Shown: positions 5,035 to 39,223 of the stretch, one piece after another
Layout of the letters: each line of letters begins with the position of its first letter
How positions within the stretch are numbered: the first letter of the stretch is position 1
Assembly: GCA_964106915.2 (NCBI GenBank)
Contig: OZ066915.1
Origin: Podarcis gaigeae
Taxonomy: Eukaryota
DNA: 64,000 nucleotides
Reading direction: 5' to 3' (one strand)
Program-made: the position numbers and the translations under genes
The notes under the pieces: model-generated
What the model was told of the DNA's origin: nothing
Databases searched by the model: none
What the model saw: only the letters and a program-made list of their open reading frames with translations

Positions 5035-5769
5035 TTTTTTTTTTAAATATTTTTTATTCATTTTCACAAATATAACAAAATAAAAACATAACATAACATA
5101 CAATGACATAACATAACATACTAAAACATAACATACAATAACATACATAACACGACTTCCCCAAGCCTTCCCTTCACTGCACCCTTATTTTTTTTAAGAC
5201 AGCATTTCTAGCAATCCTTCATTCCAATTCATAACTGATTCTCTTTATATTTTATTTAAATTTAAGATTTAACAGCTATAATTCTCTATCTTATATCCCT
5301 TGACATTTTAGCATTCCGAAATTTTACAACAGTTCCTAAGATAAACTTTAAATTTTCTCCAGTCCTCTTCCACCGTCTCTCTCCTCTGGTCACGGATTCT
5401 GCCGGTCATCTCTGCCAATCCCATAAATTCTGTCACCTTGGTCTGCCATTCTTCCAGAGTGGGTAGTTCTTGCTTCTTCCAATATTTTGCTAGTAGAATT
5501 CTTGCTGCTGTGGTTGCATACATGAAGAATGTTCTGTCTTCCTTTGATACCATTTGGTCGACCATGCCCAAGAGAAAAGCCTCTGGTTTTTTAGCAAATG
5601 TCCGCTTAAGAATTTTCTTCATTTCATTATAGATCATTTCCCAGTAGGCCTTAATCTTTGGGCAGGTCCACCAAAGGTGATAAAAAGTTCCTTCACATTC
5701 ATTACACTTCCAGCAATTATTATTGGGCAAATGATATATCTTTGCTAGCCTGGCTGGGGTCATGTACCA
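5035..5769 (-). mobile_element. 5'-truncated L1-clade LINE (ORF2 C-terminus, 3'UTR, polyA)
   Basis: Minus strand encodes WYMTPARLAKIY...CWKCNECEGTFYHLWWTCPKI (CCHC knuckle of L1 ORF2) to a stop at 5308. AATAAA plus polyA at ~5035-5060. Perfect 17-bp TSD CATACAAGAGTACTTTG at 5018-5034 and 5770-5786. Confidence 0.92.
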
Positions 5770-5939
5770 CATACAAGAGTACTTTGACATGGAACCTGCC
5801 TTATTGCAAGGGGGTGGGGAATGAGGCCAAAATTTGACACACACACCTCCCCCCAGCCCTTGCATTGCCTTCCCAAAGCTGGGAAAGTAAGATGCTGGAC
5901 TTTGGCAGGAAGTTGCAGGGCTCTGGCAGGGTCCTTGAG

Positions 5940-6761
5940 TAAGGTTACCATATTTTTTTCAAAGAATCCGGGGACACTTTTTTTTTGAAAAGAGGGGAAA
6001 AAAGGTTTTTAATTTTTTTTTTTAATAAAATAAAATAAGAACTAATATCTTCTCTTCTGTGGTCTCTTTTGTCGCATGGCCTTCCTCTGGGTCCCGGCCA
6101 GCTCTCTTGGAGTGCTAGCCAATGTGGAGTAGGCTCAGGTCGGGCCTGGGCTTGGCCACGTGTCCTTGTCCTCCCAGTGCTCTCCGACATTTCCTCCTCA
6201 GCGGTGGCAGCAGCTCGGCAAGGTCGGGGCTCCCCTCTTTTTTCTCCTTCCTCTTTCTCTCTCTTCCTTTTCCTCTCTTCCTTCTCCCTGCATCAGCTCT
6301 GGGGTTTTCCTGGCTCCAGAGTGTCGCTGGGCAGTCGGCTGGGTGGCTGGCTGCTCTCACTCCTGGCTCGATTTGGGTCATGGTGTGTGTGTGTGTGTCA
6401 GTGGTTCCGCCAGTTGACGCGCCGGGCGTCCCCGGTTCCCCCTTGGCACTGGTGGTGGTGGCGGCAGTCTCAGCAGCCCAGAGGCAGCCTGGTAGCGCAG
6501 TAGGCACTGGCTGGCTTCAGGAGCTGCTCACTGCCATGGAGCCCACCATTATGCCTCACCAGAAGTCCCCATATGATGTGTCTTGTGCTGTTGAACCAAT
6601 CACACAACATTCATTCCCTACTAATAAATCTAGAAAACTTAAAATATAAATCCGGGGACATTAAATGAAATCCGGGGATATTCCAGGGACGTATTTTGTC
6701 CAGGGACAGATTTGTAAATCCGGGGACTGTCCCCGGGAAACGGGGACATCTGGTAACCACA
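5940..6761. mobile_element. Non-autonomous hAT (Blackjack-like) DNA transposon
   Basis: Termini taaggttaccata / tctggtaaccaca. Subterminal tccggggaca repeats at both ends. 8-bp TSD TCCTTGAG/TCCTAGAG. Confidence 0.8.
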
Positions 6762-28738: not shown

Positions 28739-30339
28739 CTGGAGCAGCATTACAGGGAGCAAGCTTCAGGGTAGTGACAACTTTAAAATATATGTATCAG
28801 CATTTCAATCGGCCTGCACTGTTGAAAAGGCTCCTTTTACCTTTATGGCTTAAAAATAAATTTAACTGTCTTTGAGGGTTAATTGGTATTATGATTAATG
28901 ACTCCTTATTATCTCTTCTTGATGTGCTTGTGCAATATTATTTATGATGACTGAAGGTCAGAACAAATAAATAATTATCTGTCTAGCCTTATTACAAGGT
29001 GAAATGTGGACAAACATTGTATTTCTTCCAGCCATTAGGGGTTAATTAGGGCCCCTAATGGGTGACATAATATTTTCATCCAGTGTGGTATAATGGTTAG
29101 TGTGTTGGGTTGGGTTTTGAAGTGGGAACACACAGGTTCTGAGCACACAAATAGCATAGACAAAAGGAACGGATTTGAAAATTTACATTACATTGTGTTC
29201 TTTGCACTGATTACTTCCCAGGATCTGTAATCCGTTATCATTTCCCCTCTGTGCAGGATTGTGGTATAGTATGATTAAATTGATGTGATTCTTCCTGCAC
29301 TTAAACCTGAAGAGTATCTGAAACAGGCAGAAAACGTAGACGGTACAGGATTCATTGGCTGAATTTTTGTAAACTGTTCTGAAGGTGTTTCATTTTCGAA
29401 GAAATGTTCACAAGTCAGTTACATTAAGAAATGTAGTGTAGTAGCTAAAGTTGCGATCTTATGAAAAGTTATTTGAGATTAAGTCCCTCTTTGTTCCAGT
29501 GGAGACTTCCATGAAGGGGCGCTAGAAGGCAATTTTCTATTATTCCCTCTTCCTTCTGCAGCCCTTGCCCGCCCCCCCCCGGCCGCCGCCCCAGAGTACC
29601 ATGTAGGCCTCTGTACCCACTAACACCACAAAGAAAACCTTCATAGCAATGAAATACGTATCAACATTCTGCTATAGAATTTGTGCATATCTTTTCAGAA
29701 GTTGGACCCACTGATTTAAATTGGATTAACTCCCAGGTAAGCATGTCTCGGGTCACAACCTGAGTAATAAACAAGAGGTTTAAAGACTGTCTCAAGGCAA
29801 ATCTAAAAAAAAATGTAGTATAAACAATGACAACTGGGAAACACTGGCCTGCGAGTGCTCCAGTTGGAGAACAGCCTTTATCAAAGGTGTCATGGGCTTT
29901 GAAGACACTCGAACTCAGGACGCAAGGGAAAAACGTGCTATGAGGAAGGCACGCTTGGTAAATCCACACCGTGATCAACTCCCGCCTGGAACCCAATGTC
30001 CCCACTGTGGAAGGACATGTGGATCCAGAATTGGCCTCCACAGTCACTTACGGACTCATTGTTAAAACCGTGTTTATTGGAAGACAATCTTCCTGGGCTA
30101 CAGGAAGATGTTGTCCACTCTTTCACTGCATGTATTTCAATATGTGTGAAAGTGCTGTGGCACTCATCCGAGGTTAACTGAAAATTTCAGTAAGACTGGG
30201 GTCACATAACACACCGGTGTCATTTAATGCAAGCATCTAGCGCCTATTATTCATTCATTTACTCCCAGTACAGTACTTGTATGCCACCTCTCATGGCTAG
30301 CCCTCCCAAGGCGCCTGACAGCTTATTTAAAACATAAAA

Positions 30340-38124: not shown

Positions 38125-38129
38125 TATAT

Positions 38130-38889
38130 TGTCAGGGGTTCAGAAGGAGAGACACAGGAGGGGGAGCAAATGGAGAGTGAGGAGGAGGAGTACGAGGGGG
38201 GCGCAGGCAGTGACAGTGGCCAGAGTTATTCCACAAGCCTCTCTAGCGAATCGGAGGACTCACAGAAGGGAGCGCCGGTGGCCAGAGCAAGGGAGATTCC
38301 AAGGGAGAAACCTCAAGAGGGAGGGGCCAGCGGGGAGTCCCTGAACAGCAGCTGGAGATCAGGGCCAGCGTCTCCACCAGAGCGCAGTGGGGAGGGGGAG
38401 TCCCAGGAGTCGGGACCAGTGTCCTCACCACCAGAGGGAGGAGAGGAGTCAGGTTTGGCAACACCCACATCAGGAAGCGGGGAAACGGTCAGAAGGAAAG
38501 TCACCGGCTGGGCGCGCGCGCCAAGTTCAAATGTACAGGAGCGCGGCACAGCGGGGAGCCCGGGAAGGGAGCCAGGTCCTAAAGCCCGCCGGAGGGAGGG
38601 GCAAGACTCAGGAGGCTCCGCGTCAGAGGAGTCCAGGAAGGAGGGAACCCCAGAGGGCAGAAGGACCCAACGCAGGAAAGAGCAGCGCAAGAGGTGGAGC
38701 CGGGCTAGAATCTTAAACTGGTGTGGGTGGAGCAGTGAGTCAGAGGGGACTTAGCCGGTCTAGCGTTAAGACGTGGGCCTGCGCGCCCAGAGCTTGGAAA
38801 TGGAAACTAAACTTCAATAAAGACTTTTGTATATAATATCCACTGGGCGTTGGTCCTCTGTGAGCTGGGACCTAGCGGCAGTCCTGACA
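38130..38889 (+). mobile_element. Solo LTR-like element (760 bp; Gypsy/Ty3- or ERV-type, family unassigned)
   Basis: Ends TGTCAGG...CCTGACA (7-bp inverted, TG..CA). TATAT is duplicated at 38125-38129 and 38890-38894. AATAAA at 38816-38821. GC/CpG-rich with sharp borders against AT-rich flanks. Confidence 0.8.
38170..38754 (+). CDS. Putative LTR-encoded ORF, 194 aa, acidic/Ser-rich disordered protein with C-terminal Arg-rich motif
   Basis: Longest ORF in the window and wholly inside the LTR-like element. The frame stays open back to the LTR edge (38131). The stop lies ~60 nt before AATAAA. No homolog recognised. Confidence 0.4.
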   Translation: MESEEEEYEGGAGSDSGQSYSTSLSSESEDSQKGAPVARAREIPREKPQEGGASGESLNSSWRSGPASPPERSGEGESQESGPVSSPPEGGEESGLATPTSGSGETVRRKVTGWARAPSSNVQERGTAGSPGREPGPKARRREGQDSGGSASEESRKEGTPEGRRTQRRKEQRKRWSRARILNWCGWSSESEGT

Positions 38890-39223
38890 TATATTAACAT
38901 ATCTTTGCAAATGACTTGCTACTTAAACCTTGAAAAGAATGATGTTTCACCACAATATTATTTATTAAACAATTTCCTGAAATCAGATTGACTAGAATAT
39001 TATGCCATGAGCTTTAGTAGGCTATGGTTCTGTTTAGTCAGAGGAAGGAAGTAATTGACTGGGAAGGCAGCAGGTAGGTTTAATATGAAATGTTTGTGAC
39101 TACCTTGTGAGAATATCAAAATTATTGAGGTCTTTCTCCATTAGTTAGAAATTTGGCACAAGCACAATTCAAGAAATCTTTCTTAGTTGCAAAGTGTAGA
39201 TCATGAGCTTCAGGACATCTTCA

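Follow-up and report, generated by a model that had tools for sequence, protein, structure and literature searches.

The open frame of a lizard solo LTR as the LTR-coded tail of a chromovirus Pol protein

The long open frame in a 760-bp element of the window, the 64,000-nucleotide stretch of Podarcis gaigeae DNA analyzed here, is almost certainly the C-terminal end of a retrotransposon Pol protein maintained by selection, and not a separate gene. As a whole, the explanation that we regard as probable is that the element, a solo LTR, derives from a young Ty3/gypsy chromovirus and that its frame encodes a selected, disordered integrase tail with a likely role in nuclear import or chromatin tethering. 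The solo copy in the window is itself ordinary. U3 is usually treated as non-coding regulatory DNA, however, whereas the whole 612-bp predicted U3 of this family evolves under protein-level selection.

The solo LTR and its family

The element (positions 38130–38889, + strand) begins with TGTCAGG, ends with CCTGACA, is flanked by copies of the target-site duplication (TSD) TATAT at 38125–38129 and 38890–38894 (+), and contains an AATAAA polyadenylation signal at 38816–38821 (+), all as an earlier note on this DNA had described. The note also took the element for the solo LTR of a family present in many copies and flanking gag-pol, and a search of the same genome with the 760-bp sequence bore this out. 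There were 678 candidates, identity was 100% over 760 bp in all 40 that were scored, and the same sequence bounds full-length gag-pol elements of 6.6 kb. Thirty loci of the family comprised 10 solo LTRs, every one of which had a 5-bp TSD, nine 5′ LTRs, nine 3′ LTRs, and two LTRs with internal sequence on both sides. In four copies with two LTRs, the members of each pair were identical (760/760), and the family must therefore be very young; it is also abundant and was apparently active recently. Tandem copies with one common LTR accounted for two of the 30 loci. Dense clusters of near-identical copies lie near contig ends, for example at 138.1–138.9 Mb of contig C1, and the TSDs GTATG and ACATG recur across independent insertions, a hint of local sequence preference.

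In a full copy of 6586 bp, gag occupies a frame of 370 codons and pol, in the −1 phase, one of 1566 codons. The gag frame matched the Pfam domains Retrotrans_gag, DUF4939, Ty3_capsid, and zf-CCHC, and its nearest solved structure was the PEG10 capsid (E 0.0004); the pol frame matched RVP_2, RVT_1, RT_RNaseH, Integrase_H2C2, rve, and SH3_Tf2-1. The nearest named proteins were gypsy polyproteins of Podarcis muralis (72–83% identical). Paired TG...CA LTRs, a TSD of 4–6 bp, a polypurine tract (PPT), gag followed by PR-RT-RH-IN, and the absence of env are the features of Ty3/gypsy elements (Metaviridae). Below, group A denotes the family of the window together with its older subfamilies, and group B a second group in the same genome. 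At the gag-pol overlap, a slippery GG(A/G)AAAC followed by a 10–11 bp hairpin was present in eight of nine group-A copies scanned; one full copy has GGAAAAC with an 11-bp hairpin a few bases downstream (2179–2240 of that copy), and most older copies have GGGAAAC. These signals predict that Gag-Pol is made by −1 frameshifting.

No host gene was found around the solo LTR: of the long stop-to-stop frames (164 of at least 75 amino acids), 100 were scanned in a way that would miss short exons, 99 had no Pfam match, and the remaining one had a weak C2H2 match. A 216-codon frame at 5311–5958 (−), which had no Pfam match, resembles the cysteine-rich C-terminus of ORF2 of an L1-type LINE. A short frame at 29784–30062 (+) ends in a C2H2-like finger with a weak Pfam match (E 0.00095) and resembles the end of an RTE-type LINE.

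The LTR frame as the end of pol

On the + strand of the LTR, one frame contains no stop between 38131 and the TAG at 38752–38754, which gives 207 codons within the LTR and 194 from the ATG at 38170, in agreement with the earlier note. The note's statement that the frame terminates just before the polyadenylation signal was right about the order and wrong about the adjacency: the stop lies 62 nt ahead of AATAAA, at the predicted start of the RNA. The peptide has the features that had been listed for it, including an acidic N-terminus, two SGP(A/V)S(S)PPE units (38359–38436, +), and an Arg-rich predicted helix ending in ILNWC (38659–38724, +). Older subfamilies contain a third copy of the SGP unit, which results from a 63-bp in-frame insertion. 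A conserved basic patch, PKARRR (38578–38595, +), resembles a classical nuclear localization signal (NLS). The LTR peptide had no Pfam match.

T makes up only 13% of the LTR. Dinucleotide shuffling produced a + frame of at least 207 codons 27 times in 2000 for the whole LTR and 74 times in 2000 for its first 625 nt, and the length of the frame in the window copy alone is thus only modestly beyond chance (1.4–3.7% of shuffles). The coding status of the frame is therefore decided by comparative evidence and not by its length in this copy.

Full-length copies supply the first part of that evidence. Their pol frame runs through PR-RT-RH-IN, a chromodomain-like fold, ~160 further residues, and the PPT, which it reads as GEGGRGGFEGGMD; it then enters the 3′ LTR in the frame that the earlier note had singled out and ends at the same stop (38752). 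The C-terminus of Pol comprises ~365 residues beyond the chromodomain-like region, and 207 of them are LTR-coded. None of 150 scored matches to a junction-spanning query had an internal stop, and ~85 of the 150 (hand count) lay within a 1566-codon open frame. Among four copies with frames listed, pol was whole in two and broken elsewhere in two. Because pol continues in frame to the LTR stop, what remains in the solo LTR is an orphaned fragment: the final 207 pol codons and their stop (38131–38754, +). The earlier suspicion that the frame begins in the internal region was thus correct, as it is continuous with the 1566-codon pol frame.

The note had read the frame as an accessory gene. In retroviruses with env, MMTV sag, HIV nef, and Rev/Tat are ORFs in their own right and are expressed from spliced RNAs; the LTR frame is like them in coding over U3 and in having an Arg-rich stretch. 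By contrast, the frame here is joined to pol, the element lacks env, and the frame is not a separate ORF with a conserved start of its own. The ATG (38170–38172, +), which has a pyrimidine at −3, is an internal Met of the tail: its position is occupied by Met in 24 and Thr in three of 27 open group-A copies and by Thr or Leu in the Podarcis proteins P0002 and P0003, and Met is absent from four of the five group-B tails examined. The idea of a separate LTR-encoded protein of the sag, nef, or Rev/Tat kind is consequently not supported, since the frame is in phase with pol and the ATG is not conserved; what stands of the earlier reading is a real, selected, multicopy frame.

The predicted position of the RNA start bears on the same point. 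Behind the 5′ LTR of full copies is a sequence complementary to LTR positions 613–623, which correspond to an 11-nt self-primer at 38742–38752 (+) in the window and, by prediction, to the 5′ end of the RNA and the start of R. A match of 11–12 nt of the self-primer to the primer-binding site (PBS) was present in 13 of 15 group-A loci with two LTRs (24 examined); one of the other two has 8 nt, and one has another LTR inserted at the site. Group A has four covarying versions of the primer, each matched by its own PBS, and group B showed matches of other sequences, at 6 of 14 loci and at 9 of 20. In addition, when the predicted 5′ region is folded (z −2.9), the primer pairs with the PBS in the MFE structure as well as in the centroid. 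From these observations we infer that R starts at 38742. U3 would then span 612 bp (38130–38741, +) and be coding throughout when it belongs to the 3′ LTR of a full element, and a TATA-like TCTTAAA (38711–38717, +), a candidate promoter element that overlaps the I-L-N codons, would lie 25–31 nt upstream of the RNA start. With RNA starting at the self-primer, only the U3 of the 3′ LTR would be present in the RNA, as the end of pol, and U3 would be dual-use DNA that acts as promoter in the 5′ LTR and as coding sequence in the 3′ LTR. The stop codon of the young family (38752–38754) adjoins the self-primer, whose bases double as codons.

Because the ATG at 38170 would lie 572 nt upstream of the RNA start, a solo LTR would not express the frame from its own promoter. 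The claim that every solo LTR could make the protein therefore conflicts with a predicted RNA start downstream of nearly the whole frame, and the solo copy in the window is very probably silent for the LTR frame and a remnant of recombination. We consider it improbable that the frame is also expressed alone from this ATG, via spliced or read-through RNA, with solo LTRs making an accessory protein. Such expression would fit the retention of Met in 24 of 27 open group-A copies, the splice-donor-like GTAAG(T/C) directly behind the group-A 5′ LTR, the tandem copies that share an LTR (two of 30 loci), and the existence of database proteins (P0008, P0009, and P0011) that match the LTR part only. These proteins are hypothetical predictions, however, the donor-like bases are largely PBS, and group B has GCAAT, which is not donor-like, behind its LTR; the distance of 572 nt from ATG to RNA start, the Thr or Leu in relatives, and the lack of Met in four of five group-B tails also argue against separate expression. 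We dropped a reading of GTAAGT behind the 5′ LTR as a splice donor, as it is mainly PBS sequence and is absent in group B. When contigs of four runs of unknown kind were compared with a full copy, no GT..AG joint was found among the 15 listed of 25, a result with no bearing on expression or splicing. An LTR-coded Pol tail explains the spurious hypothetical genes called on such LTRs.

Selection on the LTR-coded tail

The LTR frame is under purifying selection, which is strongest at its Arg-rich end. Older group-A subfamilies, with LTR identities of 76–84%, were found in the same genome by using the tails of Podarcis relatives, and the group-A set comprised 42 copies after six duplicates had been removed and one of 13 near-identical block copies had been kept. 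U3 was open in 27 of the 42 copies and not open in 15, and codon alignments took in the open copies only.

First, dN/dS in pairwise comparisons with the young copy was 0.22–0.37 for 24 non-identical open U3 copies, and the maximum-likelihood (ML) omega of U3 for 25 distinct sequences was 0.430 (lnL −3652.2 versus −3693.3 at omega 1; 2ΔlnL 82), a tree-based value that is blurred to some extent because the group-A subfamilies look recombined. Second, with the substitution spectrum preserved, 300 permutations never attained the observed pN/pS in any of six pairs, and all five alternative frames in U3 have stops. Third, alleles common to at least two copies fell 54, 70, and 125 times on codon positions 1, 2, and 3, respectively, versus 30, 35, and 31 times for singletons, as expected for selection in active lineages and decay after insertion. 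Fourth, the common U3 lengths to the Trp codon (589, 652, and 655 nt) are all in frame. Over the whole group-A set, U3 length was in frame in 30 of 42 copies and off frame in 12, and two of the off-frame lengths were each present in two copies; we read the non-open and off-frame copies as post-insertion decay. Frame preservation and dN/dS had been named in the earlier note as checks on the frame, and both support it (30 of 42 lengths in frame; ML omega 0.43).

Constraint varies along Pol. ML omega was 0.095 for RT, 0.119 for RNase H, 0.112 for the IN core, 0.208 for the chromodomain, and 0.362 for the pre-LTR tail. The U3 value of 0.43 is far above the 0.10–0.12 of RT and the IN core, which indicates that most of the tail tolerates change. 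The last 22 residues of the tail, encoded by 38659–38724, are its best conserved part (amino-acid identity 0.91, pN/pS 0.12; eight pairs). Within this stretch, the silent sites of the ILN codons hardly vary in group A and the codons overlap the TATA-like box; promoter constraint therefore contributes there. The stop of the young family comes three codons earlier than that of older subfamilies, and the last residues vary between subfamilies.

Group B provides a second view of an LTR-coded tail. Of 1.84 billion representatives searched with a profile, 10 matched, and the distant ones, P0013 and P0015, led to this group of older, self-priming chromoviruses, which are ~56% identical to the window's family over pol and ~61% over RT-IN. 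In these elements, the LTRs are 410–440 bp long, and pol crosses the PPT (EVD|VR) and runs 100–110 codons into the LTR, where the tail ends with a basic run, LLCW, and a stop 21–22 nt behind the start of the self-primer. Omega of the group-B U3 was 0.38 (lnL −2014.7 versus −2044.3), with U3 open in 25 of 35 copies and not open in 10. The motif [LF]LCW was present in 44 of the 45 loci in which the site was found (55 examined) and was spelled by 10 different sets of codons. Several LLCW spellings abolish the TATA-like look of the DNA, which argues that the group-B motif is kept as protein. The distance from the Trp codon to the self-primer is equal in groups A and B. A BLAST comparison of the LTR peptide with the group-B tail showed no similarity (best E 0.86), and the tails are otherwise unalignable, so that position, frame, and the terminal motif carry the case for their homology. 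Protein-level selection on U3 in two groups that are ~61% identical over RT-IN implies limits on promoter change.

These comparisons also weigh on the reading that the frame is a by-product, with pol running by chance into a T-poor promoter region and the extension having no function at the protein level. Such an origin is in keeping with the low T content of the LTR (13%), the 1.4–3.7% of shuffles that yield a frame of this length, an omega above that of the enzymes, and the differing last residues of the subfamilies. It is hard to reconcile with the third-position excess of shared changes, an omega well below 1, a permutation null of 0/300, in-frame common length variants (589, 652, and 655 nt), and the recurrence of the pattern in group B with synonymous variation under LLCW. 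We regard this reading as already largely refuted and give it very little chance of being right.

The integrase arm and known systems

What might a selected integrase tail do? AlphaFold2 models of 14 natural copies (mean pLDDT 39.5) contained a chromodomain-like β-β-β-α fold at residues 12–58 of the modeled segment, pLDDT values below 50 at residues 75–392, and a terminal helix at residues 394–423 with pLDDT of ~60–70. Nearly all of the top ranks in a Foldseek search were chromodomains, with a best E of 0.08 and no match passing E 0.001; the Pfam Chromo domain matched two of the 14 copies (E 0.0078); and relatives in databases are named Chromo domain-containing. A PDB sequence search with the chromodomain region returned no chromodomain, only chance Kelch matches. 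Taken singly, each of these tests gives weak evidence for a chromodomain at the C-terminus of integrase; together they agree. By eye, the aromatic cage of a Group I chromodomain (Y, W, Y) seems to be absent in group A, with one Trp of it kept in group B.

Behind the chromodomain-like fold and upstream of the LTR, all 42 group-A copies have an F-x8-FxGF motif. Group B has two acidic F-x(8–9)-FxGF motifs, each found in 54 of 55 loci, in which only the x position varies. A motif of the type F-x(7–10)-FxGF arises in 1.1% of shuffles of a 160-residue segment. These upstream motifs resemble LEDGF-binding motifs. In the available text of two sources, the LEDGF/HRP2-binding motif consists of a Phe helix, an acidic or Ser/Thr-rich linker of 8–16 residues, and FxGF, and such TND-interacting motifs (TIM, or LEDGF IBD-binding motif) occur in MLL1, JPO2, IWS1, and POGZ (PMC9987994; PMC11910589). 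The sequence pattern of Phe helix, 8–16 residue linker, and FxGF has a single occurrence in group A and two in group B, in both cases upstream of the LTR. The group-A linker, however, is Ser/Thr-rich rather than acidic, and the motif, a candidate by sequence pattern, lies outside the LTR of the window. As far as its available text goes, the review of TND motifs names lentiviral integrases as the sole viral users, and the string 'transpos' is absent from that text. A complex prediction without alignments for the lizard LEDGF domain (P0033, residues 400–490) and the FxGF segment gave a score of 0.12 (mark 0.34). Exons of the host PSIP1/LEDGF gene are located at C30:25411715-25412864, and one of them is 100% identical to PSIP1 of Podarcis muralis and 99% identical to that of Lacerta agilis.

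The LTR-coded part of the arm consists of acidic Ser-rich stretches, PKARRR, and the Arg-rich helix. By analogy with Ty1 integrase, we lean slightly toward a role of the tail in nuclear import and chromatin tethering as a disordered integrase arm. The tail would stay on integrase after proteolysis, its basic patches might act as an NLS or as contacts with nucleosomes or DNA, and the upstream FxGF motif may bind a LEDGF/HRP2-type domain. Arg-rich helices bind RNA, and the helix in the tail, its best conserved segment (pN/pS 0.12), terminates a long chain that is accessible and predicted to be disordered. These properties would also suit an unlikely alternative in which the tail is made as part of Pol and then cut off by protease to give a free small protein, for example a Rev-like RNA-binding export or packaging factor. 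No cleavage site was identifiable, however, both the chromodomain-like fold and the FxGF motif of this arm suggest chromatin, and basic runs are described as typical of integrase NLSs as well (PMC3605345, in the portion available).

Returning to the integrase arm, a broader and more tentative proposal, which we put forward as less likely to be right than wrong, is that these reptile chromoviruses grew a modular integrase targeting arm, its parts being a chromodomain that has degenerated, FxGF motifs (one or two) in mimicry of the LEDGF/HRP2-binding motifs of the host, and a basic helix with LLxW that the LTR encodes. If this proposal were true, a retrotransposon would have reached the chromatin tether of HIV integrase by copying a host short linear motif, and a promoter region would double as coding sequence under selection. 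The conserved FxGF motifs and the basic helix with LLxW could reveal how nuclear entry and site choice work in vertebrate Tf1/sushi elements, which are kin of PEG10/RTL1. Two other motif readings were dropped: a PP1-binding RVxF reading of RILNW, as group B, P0007, and P0009 have no basic residue at the needed place, and a Ku-binding motif, as the Pro is missing.

By the features tested, namely a self-priming PBS and a frameshift signal, the element fits a Tf1/sushi-type chromovirus, a placement made from these sequence features. The Tf1/sushi group corresponds to the V-clade of GyDB, with sushi-ichi, Amn-ichi, and Amn-san. A self-priming PBS and −1 frameshifting are given as features of this group in the available text of two sources (bioRxiv 10.1101/2022.12.06.519325; PMC6317226), and the window's family has the former and a signal for the latter. 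The LTR termini in the window also fit the Sushi terminus motif TGTYANR...CNTNACA (PMC3601003, available part), gag matches DUF4939 and the PEG10 capsid, and a chromodomain-like fold follows integrase. Two differences stand out: Pol of the window's family runs ~365 residues past the chromodomain instead of stopping near it, and its U3 is G/A-rich and T-poor, whereas the Sushi U3 is described as T-rich (PMC3601003).

Entry of pol into the LTR has precedents elsewhere. In plant chromoviruses of the CRM clade (Beetle) and in Bingo1-4/7, the gag-pol ORF is reported to enter the 3′ LTR (PMC3605345, available text), as the polyprotein ORF does in groups A and B. According to what is available of another source, CRM elements have a CR motif downstream of the PPT that is thought to have replaced the chromodomain (PMC6317226). 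The window's family, by contrast, has no CR-type chromodomain downstream of the PPT and keeps a chromodomain-like fold upstream of it; the LTR part is a long, predicted-disordered tail that covers the whole predicted U3 and has no Pfam match; and the family differs from both CRM and Bingo in its animal host and in priming by a self-primer. Ty1 integrase offers a likeness of description: its C-terminal half is long and intrinsically disordered (PMC8487063, in the text available). This half is reported to contain an NLS and a host-targeting segment. Ty1 differs in being a copia element in which integrase is internal and the tail is not LTR-coded. The corn-snake OCA2 element, considered as a parallel, is of the copia type and not relevant (PMC4657000, available text). 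No vertebrate description of pol reading through the LTR was found in the literature searched, although Butler et al. 2001 or Repbase may contain one; pol-into-LTR reading is thus known in plant chromoviruses and, as far as that literature goes, apparently undescribed in vertebrates.

A large share of the older, diverged full copies of groups A and B is located on one contig (C32, 29.5 Mb). Some of the older copies on this contig are in repeated blocks near 24–27 Mb, and the contig may be a repeat-rich chromosome of low recombination such as a W.
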